A stretch of 64,000 nt of DNA from an uncultured Candidatus Saccharibacteria bacterium (GTDB taxonomy: Bacteria; Patescibacteriota; Minisyncoccia; Phycocordibacterales; Zambryskibacteraceae). Made by a program: the position numbers and the translations under genes. This document shows positions 2,530 to 15,049 of this stretch, in pieces; the stretch's first letter is position 1; every line of letters starts with the position of its first letter. The stretch covers positions 75,666-139,665 of the forward strand of contig CAZSOL010000001.1 in NCBI GenBank assembly GCA_964608585.1, in the 5' to 3' direction. Below the pieces are notes generated by a model. The model saw only the letters and a program-made list of their open reading frames with translations. It searched no databases and was not told the origin of the DNA.

Positions 2530-5500
2530 ATGACTAACAACAACAAGAAAACAATTGATACCAAGGACTTCACCTCGCTTACAATAAAGCTTGCAAGTCC
2601 AGAGCGCATCAAGGAGTGGTCGTTCGGTGAGGTGACCAAGCCGGAGACCATCAACTACAGGACTCAGAGAAGCGAGAGGAACGGACTCTTTGACGAGAAG
2701 ATCTTCGGTCCAGACAAGGACTTTGAGTGTTACTGCGGTAAGTATAGAGGTATTAGATACAAGGGTATTGTATGTGAGAAGTGTGGAGTGGAGATTACTC
2801 GCTCTATAGTTCGTCGTGAGAGGATGGGCCACATTGAGCTCGCTTCTCCGGTTGCGCACATTTGGTTCCTTAAGAACGTACCATCAAGGATCTCTCTTGT
2901 GATGGGTATCCCAGTAGCAGACCTTGAGAAGGTTATCTACTTTGCTGGTTACATTGTTACCTCTGTATCAGAGTCAGAGAAGAATAGGGTCTTGAAGGAT
3001 TTGGACTCTGAGTTCAAGAGTAAGGTTAAGAGCTTGCATGATGACAAGGCTAAGGAGGCTCTAAAGGAGCTCGCTCAGCAAGCTAAGAAGGATATAGAGT
3101 CTCTTGTGCCAGGAAGGGTCTTGGATGAAGTTGAGTACCATCGTTTTGGTATGAAGTACTCAACTATCTTTGAGGCGGGTATTGGTGCAGAAGCAATCTT
3201 TGAAATCCTAAAGTCTTTGGATCTCAAGAAGTTACATGCCGAGATAGAAGAGCAGATAACTAGAGCTCCTGCTACAGAGTTGGTCCGTCTACACAAGAGA
3301 GCTTCTACCGTACAGTGGTTGATTAGCTCAAACATCCGTCCTGAGTGGATGTTCCTTACTCGTATACCGGTTATCCCTCCAGCAATTAGACCAATGGTTC
3401 CACTAGATGGAGGTAGATACGCAACATCTGATGTAAACGACCTATACCGTCGTGTGATAAACAGGAACAACCGCTTGAGGAAACTTAAAGAGATTAATGC
3501 TCCAGATGTGATCCTCCGCAATGAGAAAAGAATTCTTCAGGAGGCAGTAGATGCACTTATAGACAACACTATAAGACATGGAAGCGCTGGTGGAAGTCAG
3601 GCACAGAGGAGACCTCTTAAGAGTTTGTCTGACAACCTCAAGGGTAAACGCGGTCTCTTCCGTCAGAATCTTTTGGGTAAGAGAGTAGACTACTCTGGTC
3701 GCTCAGTTATCGTTGTTGGTCCAGAACTCAAGCTCCATCAGTGTGGACTTCCAAAGCATATGGCCTTGGAACTCTTCAAACCTTTCGTCATTTCAGAGCT
3801 ATTGAAGCGCGAGCTAGCTTACAACATCCCTGGTGCAAGACGTCTTATTGAGGATGCTATACCAGAGGTATGGGCAATCTTAGAAGAGATTATTAAGAAC
3901 AAGTATGTGCTCCTAAACCGCGCACCTACACTACACCGCTTGGGTATACAAGCCTTCCAGCCAATCTTGATTGAGGGTAATGCGATACAACTTCACCCTC
4001 TAGTATGTACAGCCTTCAACGCGGACTTCGATGGAGACCAGATGGCTGTACACGTGCCACTCTCGGACGAGGCTCAAGCTGAGGCTAGACTCATTATGGC
4101 AGCGGACAAAAACATCCTAAAGCCGGGTAACGGTGAGCCTGTTGTCACCAACAAGATGCTAGACATCGTCCTTGGTACTTACTGGATGACTCGCATTATT
4201 GCAGGAGAAAAGGGAGAGAACTCCTTCCACTCAAGTCCAAACGCATCTATTACAGCATACGACTTCGGAGCTGTGGCTATGAGAGCCAAGATAAAGGTCT
4301 TGGCAACTGACTCAGAGAAGTACAAGCATCTTGACGGTAAGATCTTTGAGACATCTGTCGGTAGGCTACTGTTCAACTCTGTGCTTCCTTCGGACTACCC
4401 ATACATCAACCATGAGATGGATAAGAAGAAGATGGGAGAGTTGGTAGACGACCTTATTGAGAAGTATGGCATTGAGAACTTGCCTGCAATCGCTGACAAG
4501 ATCAAGAGCTTCGGCTTCAAGTATGCAACTCAGTCTGGAGTTACATGGGGGTTAGACGACGTTAAGATCCCTGAGGAAAAGTCTAAACTTGTAGAGAAGG
4601 GTAGAAAGGAGGTTGAGAAGGTTATAGAGCAGTGGAACGACGGACTTCTCTCTGAGAACGAGAGGATACAAAAGTCTGTTGAGATCTGGCAGTCCATAAA
4701 GTCTGAGATTGAGGTATTGATCCCAGCTACATTGGATATAAAAGATTCTGTATACGACATGACTTACTCTGGAGCTAGAGGAACCATGGGCAACCTTACT
4801 CAGATGGTGGGTATGAAGGGTATCATTGCTAACGTCTCTGGAGAGTCGCTAGAGTTCCCTATTACATCTTGTTACAAGGAAGGCCTTACTCCACTTGAGT
4901 ACTTCATCACCACTCACGGTTCTAGAAAGGGTCTAACAGACACAGCACTTAACACTGCTAAGGCCGGATATCTTACAAGACGTCTCTTCGATGTGGCACA
5001 AGACGAGATGATTACTGAACATGATTGTGGCACTAAGGAAGGAATCCTTATAACTAGAGAGTCTGCTTCTGGTATTCAGATTCCGATCTCTAAGTCGGTG
5101 AAGGGGCGCTTCTTGGCTCAAGATGTCTCAGATGATAAGGGTAATGTGATCTTCAAAGCGGGCCACTTCTTGACCAAGGCTGATGCTGACTCTCTTGAGA
5201 AGGCTAATGTAGAGGAGGTTGTGGTACGAAGCCCAATGACCTGTAAGTCGGAGCAGGGGCTATGTGTGAAGTGCTATGGTGCCGATCTTGGTAACAACAA
5301 GGTGATAGAACTAGGTGAGGCTGTTGGTACAGTAGCTGCTCAAGCCATTGGTGAGCCAGGTACACAGCTAACAATGAGAACCTTCCACGCTGGAGGAGTG
5401 GCAGCTCAAGGAGGAGACATTACTCAAGGTCTACCAAGAGTTGAAGAAATCTTTGAGAAGAGGAAGCCTAAGAGCCAGGCTCTCATCGCCCATGTTGATG

Positions 5501-8972: not shown

Positions 8973-8980
8973 ACGTTGAA

Positions 8981-9009
8981 GCCCCGCACAGAATTTGTGC
9001 GGGGCTTTG
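8981..9009 (+). terminator. rpoD intrinsic terminator hairpin gccccgcaca-gaattt-gtgcggggc plus T-rich tract; core of direct-repeat copy 1 (8971..9016)
   Basis: Perfect 10-bp GC-rich stem followed by tttggttgtcttt; a near-identical copy occurs at 9484..9526. Confidence 0.75.
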
Positions 9010-9021
9010 GTTGTCTTTGAG

Positions 9022-9399
9022 CTATGCTTGACGCATCAGCTTGACGCTTGGGAGTGTGTTCTCCTCCCGAGGGATGAGACACTTGGCGAGCTCATCGCGG
9101 ATGATTCGCCGCACCTCGTTCTCGAGACCAGCTCTGATGAGGGGTCCGAGAGCTTCAGCGAGTTCGGGCCACACCTTCTCGTCCATGAGCCCAACCTCGA
9201 ACCCCCATTCTTGGAGATCGATCAGGCACTTCTGGATCTGGCCGAGAAGATGCATGATCAGGCCGTGTTTGCCGTTCCCCCTGCAGGTGAGACACTGGAT
9301 CTCCCACGTCATTGCTCTGAGTAGGTTTCGACCCGCCTCCTCACGCATCTGGGGGGTGGCGTTGAAGAACGGATTGTCCTTCGGCAGTCTGTCGCTCAT
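9022..9399 (-). CDS. Hypothetical 125-aa protein with one CxxCxGxG motif (CLTCRGNGKH); locally GC-rich cassette gene
   Basis: ATG at 9399 preceded by GAGGAG; upstream minus-strand TTGACA-18 nt-TATAAT promoter; about 62% GC in a 60-nt sample versus about 42% in adjacent rpoD; flanked by 45-bp direct repeats. Confidence 0.6.
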   Translation of the reverse strand: MSDRLPKDNPFFNATPQMREEAGRNLLRAMTWEIQCLTCRGNGKHGLIMHLLGQIQKCLIDLQEWGFEVGLMDEKVWPELAEALGPLIRAGLENEVRRIIRDELAKCLIPREENTLPSVKLMRQA

Positions 9400-9483: not shown

Positions 9484-9526
9484 AAACGTTGAAGCCCCGC
9501 ACAGAATTGTGCGGGGCTTGGTGTCT
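9484..9526. repeat. Direct-repeat copy 2 of the terminator-hairpin element (aaacgttgaagccccgcacagaattgtgcggggcttggtgtct); also the terminator of the minus-strand gene 9532..9780
   Basis: About 90% identical to 8971..9016 in the same orientation; together they bracket the 467-bp GC-rich insert. Confidence 0.7.
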
Positions 9527-12459: not shown

Positions 12460-13034
12460 TAGAAAGGTAGGGTAAAAGTTAGTTTGCTGTCGTTCATATC
12501 CTCCCAGTTTGAGGTATCTAGTTTTATTTCATAGAGTTTGCCCCCCTCTTTGAAGGTTAATTTGTTGTTCTCTCGAGCAAAGTCGTATAGCTCTTTGGTG
12601 AGCCTTACATCATCAAGGCAGTATTGTCTTATCTTCTCTATCTCGCCCTTCTTCCACCACTCTATAGCTTCTAGGCCGTGGCCACTCTTCTTCTTCCCGA
12701 GAGTCCCTTCGGCTAGTTGGTCTAGCTTCATCCTTCTACCATAGGCTTTTTGTATCTCCTTTAGGATATCCAAGCTCTTTAGTTTCGTCAGGTCTCCGGG
12801 GTAGTACTTGTTTAGTATGGGTATGTCAAAGTGGTCAGAGTTGAAGCCTATGAGCACGTCTGCTCTCTCTATGATTGGCCAGAGAAGACCAAGCTCTTCT
12901 TGTAAGTAGCTCGTATAAGCATCTGTCTCAGAGTCCCAAACTCCGATAAGAGAGAGGTCTAAGAGAGTTGGGTCACTCCCACCAACGTCGGCGAAGACGT
13001 TCTTCGTCTCAATATCAAAAACAATTTTACGCAT
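12459..13034 (-). CDS. DEDD-type 3'-5' exonuclease, RNase H-like fold (PolB-exonuclease-like, DNA_pol_B_exo2 type)
   Basis: IVFDIETKN (Exo I), GFNSDHFDIPIL (Exo II), YCLDDVRLTKELY (Exo III); a paralogue lies at 53500..54195. Confidence 0.7.
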   Translation of the reverse strand: MRKIVFDIETKNVFADVGGSDPTLLDLSLIGVWDSETDAYTSYLQEELGLLWPIIERADVLIGFNSDHFDIPILNKYYPGDLTKLKSLDILKEIQKAYGRRMKLDQLAEGTLGKKKSGHGLEAIEWWKKGEIEKIRQYCLDDVRLTKELYDFARENNKLTFKEGGKLYEIKLDTSNWEDMNDSKLTFTLPF

Positions 13035-13791
13035 TCGGCAAAAGGTTGTGAGTTTCTAAGAAGTCGCGCATAGTAATGTCGCCCATACCAAAGCCAACCG
13101 CAGGCACCGGCTCTACATCAAAGAGCTCAAGCAAGTTGTCGTACCGACCTCCTCCAGCTAATGCTCTGGGGTTCTCGCTGTTTTTATCAAAGACTTCAAA
13201 GACGATGCCGGTATAGTAAGTCTGCCCTCGAGCCAAGGAGTCGTCGAAGACTATATTTGGAGAGACATCCTTCACATCGTCTAGGTTGCAGTTGTTCACT
13301 CTTATCTCAAAGTCTTCATCCTTGGCACCAAACTCCTTCATCACTTTGTAGAGGAGAGAGAGCATTTCTTTGTCGCCATCTAATCCTGAGACTCCCAAGA
13401 GATCTGCATTGAGTTGCCAGTGCTCACGCTTCCTGCCTCTTTGAGGCTTCTCGTATCTAAAGAGGTTGGGGATAGAGAACCAGCGAAGAGGGAACTTGAG
13501 ACCCTTCCTCTTGCCAGCTACCATACGGGCAAGAGTGGGAGTCATCTCGGGGCGTAGAGTTACACTCCTCTCGCCTCTGTCTATGAAGGTGAAGGTTTGC
13601 TCGCTGACTATTTCTTCGCCAGATTTTTCTGTATAAAGCTCTGTAGGCTCAAGGGGAGACGCACCATACTCTTGGTAACCCTCTCTCTCAGCAACTTTCT
13701 TCCACACACCGAAGATATAGTTTTGTATTGCCATATCCTCGGGGTAGAAGTCGCGCACGCCCTTGTATGGCTCTGTACTTAGCTTTGACAT
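13027..13791 (-). CDS. Histidyl-tRNA synthetase-like class II catalytic core (254 aa) lacking an anticodon-binding domain
   Basis: Motif 2 TLRPEMT...FRYEKPQRGRKREHWQLNADLLG; motif 3 LAGGGRYDNL; GFGMGDITM; ORF ends about 20 aa later and overlaps the exonuclease start by 8 nt. Confidence 0.75.
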   Translation of the reverse strand: MSKLSTEPYKGVRDFYPEDMAIQNYIFGVWKKVAEREGYQEYGASPLEPTELYTEKSGEEIVSEQTFTFIDRGERSVTLRPEMTPTLARMVAGKRKGLKFPLRWFSIPNLFRYEKPQRGRKREHWQLNADLLGVSGLDGDKEMLSLLYKVMKEFGAKDEDFEIRVNNCNLDDVKDVSPNIVFDDSLARGQTYYTGIVFEVFDKNSENPRALAGGGRYDNLLELFDVEPVPAVGFGMGDITMRDFLETHNLLPNA

Positions 13792-13888
13792 ATAGAGATT
13801 ATATCAAATTTAGACCAAACAGAGCCATTGTTGACTAGATTATGACGTTGTTATATATTGCGTCAGGACATTCAACTGAGAGGTCTTT

Positions 13889-14059
13889 GTGAGTACAGAG
13901 TCAGGTAGTGACATCGGTCGTGGTAGTGGGAAACCAGACTGGGTATTTGTTTTGCTGGGTTGTGCTGTACTTCTGGCTGCGGTGCTCGTGATTGGTGTTG
14001 TCGGTCCGCATCTCTTCAAGGTTGAGAGGGTGATACCTCCAGTTCGGACTCCGAGGTAA
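13889..14059 (+). CDS. Candidate small hydrophobic peptide (56 aa, GTG start), not in the ORF track
   Basis: GAGAGG SD 5 nt upstream of GTG; in-frame TGA just upstream; TM-like WVFVLLGCAVLLAAVLVIGVVG; GC-richer than flanks; intrinsic terminator follows. Confidence 0.4.
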   Translation: MSTESGSDIGRGSGKPDWVFVLLGCAVLLAAVLVIGVVGPHLFKVERVIPPVRTPR

Positions 14060-14071
14060 CTCGGAGTTTTT
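14048..14071 (+). terminator. Intrinsic terminator actccgag-gtaa-ctcggagt followed by TTTTT, immediately before the truB start
   Basis: 8-bp stem, tetraloop, T5; plus-strand specific because there is no A-run upstream. Confidence 0.7.
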
Positions 14072-14079
14072 CATAAGAT

Positions 14080-14811
14080 ATGAAAGAAGAAATATTAAAA
14101 CTTTATAAAAATCTAGGCGAGACACCTCTTGAGTGTATTGATCGTTTTAGACTTGAGAGGCCAGAATACAAAGACACAAACATGACCTACTTGGGACGCC
14201 TTGACCCTATGGCCGAAGGTCTCATGCTTGTGCTTGCGGGCGATACAAGAGATAAGGATAAATACTTGAGCTTAGACAAGACGTATGAGTTTGAGGTGCT
14301 TTGGGGCTTTGCTACCGATACTTACGACATCTTGGGGCTAGTGACAGATACAGGCCCAATGCCGACAAAGCTTGATTTCAAGATGGAGAAGCTCTTGGAG
14401 GAGATAAGAGAGAAGAAGACTCAGAAGTATCCTCCCTTTTCTTCCAAAGTTTTTAACAAAGACTTTATGAAGGTAAGAGGGCAGACCCACGAGTTAGACA
14501 CTCCAGAACGAGGGATAAAGATATTTTCTATAGAGCACATAAACACAAGGCTAGAGAATCAAGAGGATGTTTTGGTACAAATTTTAAACAAAATAGATTT
14601 GGTAAGGGGTAATTTTAGGCAAGATGAAATTAAACAAAAGTGGGAAGAAGCAATAATCGCTGGAGAGAAAGTTTTGATCTCCCACTTTAGAGCTAGCGTC
14701 TCAAGTGGTACATATATTCGCTCTCTAGCAAACGAAATGGGTCAGAAGCTTGGTACTGTTGCCTTGGCTTACAGCATCAAGCGCACAAGGGTCGGGGAGT
14801 ACAAGATATAA
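14080..14811 (+). CDS. truB: tRNA pseudouridine(55) synthase
   Basis: YLGRLDPMAEGLMLVLAGD and KTYEFEVLWGFATDTYD motifs. Confidence 0.85.
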   Translation: MKEEILKLYKNLGETPLECIDRFRLERPEYKDTNMTYLGRLDPMAEGLMLVLAGDTRDKDKYLSLDKTYEFEVLWGFATDTYDILGLVTDTGPMPTKLDFKMEKLLEEIREKKTQKYPPFSSKVFNKDFMKVRGQTHELDTPERGIKIFSIEHINTRLENQEDVLVQILNKIDLVRGNFRQDEIKQKWEEAIIAGEKVLISHFRASVSSGTYIRSLANEMGQKLGTVALAYSIKRTRVGEYKI

Positions 14812-14839
14812 AAATAACTCACACAATGTTCTGTGTGAG

Positions 14840-15049
14840 TTATGAGAGCTCCTTCATCCGGAGATAGAAGCCAGATACAGACAACCAGAGAAAGTAACTC
14901 CCAAAAACAAGGTCAAGTGTGCCCAAGATGCGCATGCCCGTAGTATTATCCTCTATGGAAAGAAGAAATACTCCGTAGTAGATGGCACCGAGACTTATCA
15001 AACTGAAGACAATGAGTCCAACTACAGCACCAATTTTTTGCAAAAGCAT
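14840..15049 (-). CDS. Small membrane protein (69 aa), hypothetical
   Basis: Two hydrophobic helices; flanked by a bidirectional hairpin at about 14818..14846. Confidence 0.4.
   Translation of the reverse strand: MLLQKIGAVVGLIVFSLISLGAIYYGVFLLSIEDNTTGMRILGTLDLVFGSYFLWLSVSGFYLRMKELS

Follow-up and report, generated by a model that had tools for sequence, protein, structure and literature searches.

A probable small membrane-peptide gene inserted between the divergent hisS-like and truB genes in one sub-clade of Parcubacteria

The spacer that separates two divergent genes, a hisS-like gene and truB, on contig CAZSOL010000001.1 raises the question of whether it carries a gene of its own and, if so, what this gene may have done to its neighbours. 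The window considered here is a stretch of 64,000 nt of that contig, and the element under study is a plus-strand open reading frame (ORF) of 56 codons and a TAA, taken from the sequence read and the ORF list, which lies in the spacer at positions 13889-14059. An earlier note, made from the letters alone, had described at this place an unannotated gene for a small hydrophobic peptide with its own Shine-Dalgarno (SD) sequence and intrinsic terminator, and had suggested a type I toxin or a small membrane regulatory peptide. The comparative analysis indicates, with fairly good confidence, that the ORF is a genuine protein-coding small gene for a single-pass membrane peptide, within the full explanation developed below. 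It also brings out features that had been overlooked, namely a promoter, a stop codon placed within the terminator-like hairpin, a truB gene devoid of its own signals and a lineage-specific insertion.

The signals around the ORF are those expected from the earlier description. The GTG start codon (13889-13891) is preceded by a GAGAGG SD with a 5-nt spacer (tcttt), and a TGA lies in frame upstream of it at 13877-13879. The product is MSTESGSDIGRGSGKPDWVFVLLGCAVLLAAVLVIGVVGPHLFKVERVIPPVRTPR; the stretch KPDWVFVLLGCAVLLAAVLVIGVVGPHLF is contained within the ORF. A promoter-like site (Table 1) would place the transcription start near 13866. The segment is also GC-richer than its surroundings, as had been noticed, with 53% in the small ORF, 41% in truB and 46% in the window. 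The word "unannotated" holds apart from a few records: the exact ORF has been gene-called on two Logan contigs, and one relative has been deposited as "hypothetical protein". The contig was assembled in the Logan runs SRR15237806 and SRR15237804. No paralogue or repeat copy of the unit was found within the 64-kb window. Without comparative data, the window would be only suggestive of a gene; as far as sequence can tell, the decisive point is the recurrence of the same architecture in seven diverged loci.

TruB was used as a handle for the retrieval of syntenic loci in GTDB species genomes and JGI metagenomes. Six further loci with the same arrangement were recovered (L003, L004, L010, L042, L043, and L084, the last through the peptide profile search), whose TruB is 80-86% identical to that of the window. 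They come from metagenome-assembled genomes labelled Parcubacteria, Patescibacteria or, as it seems wrongly, Saccharibacteria. In each of them, the hisS-like/truB spacer is ~290-330 nt long and contains a sigma-70 promoter, an SD, an ORF of 50-60 codons, and a strong hairpin, a unit referred to here as the cassette. The promoters of the seven loci have 9-11 of 12 matches and a spacing of 16-17 nt, and the promoter is nearly identical between the window and L003 despite the diverged ORF body; together with the 5′ untranslated region, it is better conserved than the ORF body. The SD is GAGAGG also in L003 and GGAGGA, AAGGAG, AGGAA, or GAGGA at the other loci. The L003 peptide is a recognizable homologue of the window peptide (42% identity, tblastn 5e-7, in-frame indels), while L004, L042, L084, L010, and L043 are positional homologues. 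The homologous small ORFs that had been proposed as a check were found, in short, at the same hisS-like/truB site.

Several observations support that the frame is coding. The frame running from the SD to the hairpin is open in 7/7 loci, a property that no other frame shares. The indels are multiples of three, with +2 and −3 codons between the window and L003, five codons between L010 and L043, and one codon between L043 and its near relative L085. Codon position 2 is the least changed of the three, with 13 changes versus 24 and 28 at the other positions (window/L003), 11 versus 19 and 25 (L010/L043), and 4 versus 7 and 8 (L042/L084). The ratio of nonsynonymous to synonymous substitution rates (dN/dS, Nei-Gojobori) is 0.43-0.59 for the small ORF and 0.03-0.12 for truB in the three pairs with an estimable dS, the others being saturated; with dN 0.4-0.5 versus 0.1, the peptide changes at about five times the rate of TruB. 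Conservation of the peptide frame among relatives had been set beforehand as the point on which the proposal could fail, and both the in-frame indels and the constraint on position 2 speak for such conservation. In the pair L042/L084, the divergence is mosaic: about 97% identity over the flanks and the first 31 codons and about 72% over the last 23 codons (L042 2388-2452 versus L084 3101-3165), where synonymous and nonsynonymous changes both occur. This could be due to recombination or to a hypervariable tail.

It may be asked whether the open frame is a gene at all, rather than a chance opening in a GC-rich transcribed spacer, a non-coding RNA, or a 5′ leader of truB. An open frame of this length is found in 7% of dinucleotide shuffles of the window segment, which agrees with chance, and the other frames and the antisense strand are also open in several loci; moreover, the exhaustive protein search described below returned as a match only the window's own sequence. 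When an open frame is combined with a hydrophobic stretch of transmembrane (TM) grade, the frequency falls to about 1% of shuffles for the window segment and to 0.05-1.3% per locus over the seven loci, and the joint probability that all seven would show such a frame, a TM helix, and in-frame indels by chance is negligible. As already stated, only one frame is open throughout. Nor is there a sign of a structured RNA: a search of Rfam 15 over the whole window at gathering scores gave three tRNAs elsewhere and nothing in the spacer, and over 13700-14200 at E up to 10 it gave nothing better than E 4.2 (13-16 bits). The putative transcript of 214 nt, the terminal hairpin aside, is not more stable than its shuffles (z −0.75 and −1.0), and on these values of whole-leader folding a structured non-coding RNA or riboswitch was rejected. 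The absence of a gene is thus regarded as very improbable.

The opposite strand deserves a separate consideration, as the ORF at 13901..14125 (−), 74 aa, overlaps the small ORF and runs into truB. The earlier note had judged this antisense ORF implausible, and the judgement can be upheld. Its codon-aligned frame is stop-free in 6/7 loci, which would be in favour of a real gene, but this openness follows from the avoidance of TTA, CTA, and TCA in the GC3-rich sense codons (GC3 being the GC content at third codon positions). Compared with the codon-aligned antisense frame, the sense frame preserves more identical residues (21 versus 15 and 25 versus 20) and has a lower ratio of nonsynonymous to synonymous differences (pN/pS). 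In addition, the antisense ORFs are without an SD and a minus-strand promoter, and their starts and ends are inconsistent, since they begin inside truB or inside the hairpin; in L084, no antisense ORF of 30 aa or more exists in the codon-aligned frame. That the antisense ORF is the real gene is hardly credible.

The nature of the peptide can be outlined with some detail. In the window copy, the Kyte-Doolittle maximum over 19 residues is 3.08, and AlphaFold2 gives one helix at residues 18-42 (block pLDDT, the predicted local distance difference test, 85-89) with disordered tails, so that the TM prediction proposed earlier supports a single helix. A TM-grade segment is present in all seven copies (maximum 1.5-3.1), and the Trp immediately before the helix is invariant among them. 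What is retained by the peptide is its length, one TM helix, the Trp before this helix, and, in most copies, a charge asymmetry between the tails. The product would be a 56-residue single-pass peptide with a short, slightly acidic N-tail (charge about −1), a helix at about 18-42, and a basic, proline-containing C-tail (about +3). As the C-tail is more positive than the N-tail, the positive-inside rule makes an N-out/C-in orientation most likely for the window copy. Functionally, the peptide is most likely a low-constraint, membrane-embedded accessory or modulator, rather than an enzyme or a toxin.

Family searches place the peptide outside known families. A word-indexed protein search with the window peptide returned its own sequence only, and an exhaustive phmmer search over 1.84 billion representatives returned the same sequence and two spurious hits in long repeat proteins; a profile search with six of the peptides gave the same loci and one close variant only. 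There was no meaningful match in Pfam, NCBIfam, or PHROGs and none in the PDB, and no homologue was present in viral contigs or GenBank phages. The L003 peptide alone (3810-3974), and not that of the window, matches the uncharacterised phrog_27887 (E 1.2e-5, 26 bits), a match which may be compositional. The literature on leaderless mRNAs or small proteins in Patescibacteria yielded nothing specific to the hisS-like/truB locus. The peptides can be regarded as a new orphan family with a single-helix membrane peptide, limited so far to eight loci of one Parcubacteria sub-clade. A translation-arrest peptide of the SecM, MifM, or VemP kind was also considered and rejected, the C-tails being variable among the seven copies and the downstream gene being truB.

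Three subtypes of the cassette can be distinguished. In subtype A1 (window, L003, and L004), the hairpin has the stop codon in its loop and is followed by (A)TTTTCATAA, 1-3 nt, and the truB ATG. In subtype A2 (L042 and L084), ~10-12 nt separate the stop from the hairpin, after which come CTTTTC(G/A)TAAA and the ATG. In subtype B (L010, L043, and L085), the stop is 8-11 nt before the hairpin, no U-tract follows, and CATATAAT lies 7-8 nt before the truB start, where it amounts to a new leaderless truB promoter. A [KR][IV]x[RH][VC] motif after the helix is common to A1 and A2. The N-tail charge is 0 to −5 in A1 and B and +2 in A2, and the C-tails range from 0 to +3, which suggests that the N-out/C-in orientation fits A1 and B, with A2 off the pattern.

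The origin of the cassette is best seen from loci that do not have it. About 35 more distant relatives, with a full-length TruB ~67% identical or less, carry the divergent hisS-like/truB pair and no cassette (L006, L007, L012, L013, L019, L021, and ~30 others). Their hisS-like and truB start codons are 14-68 nt apart and in most cases have GGTATTATAC between them. Read on the minus strand, this is TATAAT, with 6-7 nt to the hisS-like ATG; read on the plus strand, it is TATTAT, with 6-7 nt to the truB ATG. This element would be a shared bidirectional −10 for two leaderless mRNAs in these Parcubacteria. On the hisS side, TGnTATAAT is kept at the same place in 7/7 cassette loci; in the window, it is the extended −10 of Table 1, a putative promoter of the leaderless hisS-like mRNA and, at the same time, the ancestral shared −10 that forms the left border of the cassette, its relic spanning 13798-13810. 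Because some 35 relatives are without the cassette and the hisS-side element is retained where the cassette is present, the cassette is a derived insertion, placed exactly between the shared −10 and the truB ATG. With promoter, SD, small ORF, and hairpin, it measures ~290 nt and was inserted in one Parcubacteria sub-clade, among relatives of Zambryskibacteria. In two other loci devoid of the cassette, short tandem repeats of the (GGGGCTA)n and (AGTAAGA)-like type fill the same spacer (L047 ~1550-1600 and L048 ~2040-2085), and the spacer seems to be insertion-prone.

The hairpin at the end of the cassette has a strict 8-bp stem (14048-14055/14060-14067) with the loop GTAA, and two G-U pairs extend it to 14046-14069. 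Its folding energy is −15.7 kcal/mol, with z −3.8 over a 40-nt stretch (0/200 shuffles as stable) and z −2.3 over a 50-nt stretch (8/500 shuffles). It is followed by TTTT(T)C, a T-tract of 4-5 T that extends to 14071, and as the minus strand has no T-run after the stem, the hairpin would act on the plus strand only, in line with the plus-strand-only terminator of the earlier description. The ORF had been said to end 0-10 nt before this terminator; the loop of the hairpin actually contains the stop TAA, and the 5′ arm is made up of the last three to four codons of the ORF. A terminator scan left the window hairpin unlisted, possibly because the G-T extension of the stem consumes part of the T-run. 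Significant hairpins occur at the same place in 7/7 loci (z −2.3 to −7.2), and among them five unrelated stem sequences are counted. The stems being unrelated in sequence, an alignment for covariation would be uninformative, and the hairpins were compared by per-locus z-scores. In the six relatives, folding over 50-nt stretches gives −16 to −23 kcal/mol, with z −4.1 to −7.2, and the hairpins end 10-25 nt ahead of the truB start. The stop codon is in the loop in 3/7 loci, those of subtype A1.

The insertion has consequences for truB. Its ATG comes 10 nt after the hairpin, and an in-frame TAA at 14074-14076 excludes an earlier start. In cassette-less relatives, 6-7 nt separate a −10 element from the truB ATG, whereas the window truB has neither an SD nor, at leaderless spacing, a −10 with A at position 2; in L003 and L004, a weak CATTTT is found at that spacing. 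Since truB has no promoter or SD of its own, it would need read-through from the small-ORF promoter or from the relic −10 upstream. The neighbouring operon genes likewise do without an SD, and their stop and start codons overlap or adjoin; initiation of the coupled, SD-less kind is normal in this genome and, for this reason, plausible at truB. On these sequence features, truB is probably transcribed by read-through, with its translation coupled to that of the small ORF. A tract of 4-5 U is kept in all five type A loci and fits a leaky terminator, so the hairpin with its short U-tract would end the small mRNA only partly. A ribosome terminating at the loop TAA would cover or unwind the hairpin, which would favour antitermination, as in the pyrBI leader of E. 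coli, and it could re-initiate at the ATG 21 nt downstream. Occlusion and coupling of this kind would be a secondary, unproven consequence of the insertion and not the reason for the existence of the ORF.

The same arrangement might be taken as a pure leader-peptide attenuator, in which the small ORF would only be translated, the ribosome on the 5′ arm of the terminator would set truB transcription, and the peptide itself would have no function. A short same-strand ORF is indeed present in the truB leader, overlapping the terminator in the window, L003, and L004, where the stop is in the loop; truB follows the hairpin at 10 nt without promoter or SD, and the peptide sequence is poorly conserved. 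A pure leader, however, would not need the TM-grade helix, the Trp, and the length that all seven copies keep despite saturated divergence. Furthermore, the type B loci L010 and L043, which have no U-tract, keep the ORF although truB has regained its own −10, and the stop in L042 and L084 is too far from the hairpin for full occlusion. Neither a regulatory codon run nor an alternative antiterminator structure was recognised in the leader, whose folding values were given above. This alternative is considered improbable. A membrane-peptide gene with a regulatory side effect would be a different matter: the cassette may have rewired truB away from its leaderless promoter, so that an SD-less truB would be expressed only when the membrane-peptide ORF is actively translated. 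In the window, L003, and L004, a ribosome ending in the terminator loop would both block termination and unfold the hairpin. This proposal is tentative and rather doubtful; if true, a membrane-protein gene would have been turned into an attenuator of the ribosome-occlusion type in a bacterium of the candidate phyla radiation (CPR).

A different function was implied by the type I toxin suggestion, that is, a membrane-depolarising peptide toxin held in check by an antisense RNA. The length of 56 aa, the single TM helix, the charged tails, and the orphan status are all shared with such toxins. For the antisense RNA, which had been proposed as a further check, no promoter signal emerged: scans that could miss atypical promoters gave, for the seven loci, no sigma-70-like or extended −10 promoter conserved on the minus strand, either inside the ORF or downstream of it. 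Conservation on this strand is limited to the hisS-like −10, which lies upstream of the small-ORF transcription start, and the sole minus-strand promoter hit in the window (13866..13839) is likewise upstream of that transcription start and is not conserved. In none of the loci does the duplex between the SD and the 3′ part of the ORF exceed chance, 0.19-0.99 of the shuffles being equally or more stable, and the accessibility of the SD varies between 0.17 and 0.59 across the loci with no conserved pattern. Promoter and SD are strong and conserved, unlike those of a tightly silenced toxin, and no toxin family of Pfam or NCBIfam is matched. Hydrophilic N-tails of 16-30 residues, as found here, also look atypical for type I toxins. 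Size and hydrophobicity fit the suggestion, the other defining features do not, and a type I toxin appears quite improbable.

The interpretation of the ORF as a small membrane-peptide gene has its own weak points, which should be weighed together. Transcription, translation, and membrane insertion are all deduced, and purifying selection is weak (dN/dS ~0.5). Identity to the window copy is no more than 12-42% across the seven peptides, and it is mainly by position and architecture that the three subtypes can be called homologous. An open codon-aligned antisense frame occurs in nearly all loci, as discussed above. The GC3 of the small ORF is 0.70-0.89 in five relatives (L004, L042, L084, L010, and L043), where it exceeds every 55-codon segment of the neighbouring genes; either codon bias for high expression or a foreign origin could account for it. 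In the window copy, GC3 is an ordinary 0.45, and it is codon position 1 that carries the GC excess. L042 and L084 have tails with a weak or reversed charge asymmetry. Finally, read-through and coupling are not general, as L010 and L043 have a new TATAAT 7-8 nt before truB, and the stop codons of L042 and L084 precede the hairpin by ~10-12 nt. The conserved ORF, its expression signals, the TM helix, and the coding-type substitutions nevertheless indicate, at the level of sequence, a generic small single-pass membrane protein gene.

Such a gene would be of interest in more than one respect. It would add a small membrane-protein family to the CPR/Parcubacteria, a group in which uncharacterised membrane proteins make up most of the lineage-specific proteins; 76 of the 106 CPR-enriched families have at least one TM helix (PMC6744442). 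The locus also offers a natural example of a small gene born or inserted between divergent leaderless genes that share one −10, and the displaced truB appears to cope in two ways, by read-through and coupling in one branch and by a new leaderless promoter in another. The most interesting aspect is the splitting of a bidirectional leaderless promoter by a cassette, together with a stop codon in the terminator loop before an SD-less gene. From a practical point of view, the consequences are modest: an annotation for the small ORF, and the handling of truB in this clade as one gene of a two-gene unit. The features of the window are collected in Table 1.

Table 1. Positions of the cassette elements and of the adjoining truB gene within the 64,000-nt window.
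Feature	Position	Strand	Basis or remark
Extended −10 TGATATAAT	13798..13806	−	6 nt before the hisS-like ATG (13791)
Sigma-70-type promoter TTGACT/17 nt/TATATT	13831..13859	+	10/12 matches; equivalent in 7/7 loci
SD GAGAGG	13878..13883	+	Sequence; other SD versions in relatives
Small ORF, GTG, 56 codons + TAA	13889..14059	+	ORF list, Logan gene calls, homologues
Predicted TM helix, codons 18-42	13940..14014	+	Kyte-Doolittle, AlphaFold2
Intrinsic-terminator-like hairpin and short T-tract	14046..14071	+	Folding; hairpin in 7/7 loci
truB, 243 aa	14080..14811	+	Pfam TruB_N and TIGR00431 matches

Some observations concern the neighbouring genes. The hisS-like gene, 13027-13791 (−), encodes 254 aa that match the HisRS catalytic core (TIGR00442, 236 bits, below the cut-off of 287 bits); the anticodon-binding domain is absent, and the end of the gene overlaps with the next one. 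A length of 254 aa recurs in L001, L084, L085, L086, and L087. The product may be a HisRS that functions in truncated form, a paralogue of the HisZ kind, or one half of an enzyme that has been split. On the other side, convergent with truB, a 69-aa ORF with two hydrophobic stretches is located at 14840-15049 (−); it has an SD (GGAGG) and, on its own strand, a terminator with a 12-bp perfect stem (hairpin 14814-14843). This ORF has no Pfam or NCBIfam match and is a second small membrane-protein gene adjoining truB. Farther away, two near-identical GC-rich hairpins at 8979-9007 and 9494-9517 (+), of the form AAGCCCCGCACA-GAAT(T)-TGTGCGGGGCTT, flank the ORF 9022-9399 (−), which encodes 125 aa without a Pfam hit and has the highest GC3 in the window (0.74 versus a mean of 0.51). 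This hairpin-flanked ORF may be another inserted unit.

The comparison with known systems helps to define the position of the cassette. In the pyrBI leader of E. coli, occlusion of an intrinsic terminator by the ribosome sets transcription attenuation. A leader ORF runs there, on the same strand, into an intrinsic terminator just before the structural gene, and a ribosome at the end of the ORF would likewise prevent hairpin formation. The present ORF differs in that it encodes a conserved TM helix, has no recognised feature for nucleotide or amino acid sensing, places its stop in the loop in only 3/7 loci, and is followed by truB. Type I toxins such as Hok, Fst, TxpA, BsrG, and TisB are also small, hydrophobic, one-TM peptides with charged ends, encoded on chromosomes and restricted to narrow clades; they are set apart from the present peptide by the points already listed, namely antisense RNA signal, SD-sequestering fold, family match, strong expression signals, and the long hydrophilic N-tail. 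Coat proteins of the Pf3/M13 type, which insert N-out/C-in through YidC without a signal peptide, can be taken as an analogue of topology only, with ~45-55 residues in which a central TM helix joins an acidic N-tail to a basic C-tail; the cassette has no phage context, and the viral collections contained no homologue. The closest likeness is offered by bacterial small single-pass membrane proteins such as MgtS, AcrZ, KdpF, and CydX, which have ~30-60 residues, one TM helix, and their own promoter, SD, and terminator and which are similarly poorly conserved in sequence, restricted to lineages, and often missed in annotation. There is no sequence relationship with MgtS, AcrZ, KdpF, or CydX, the single weak MgtS hit of one relative (E 0.0055) being below any meaningful threshold, and the distinctive trait of the present peptide is to be encoded by the first cistron directly before a tRNA-modification gene, truB.

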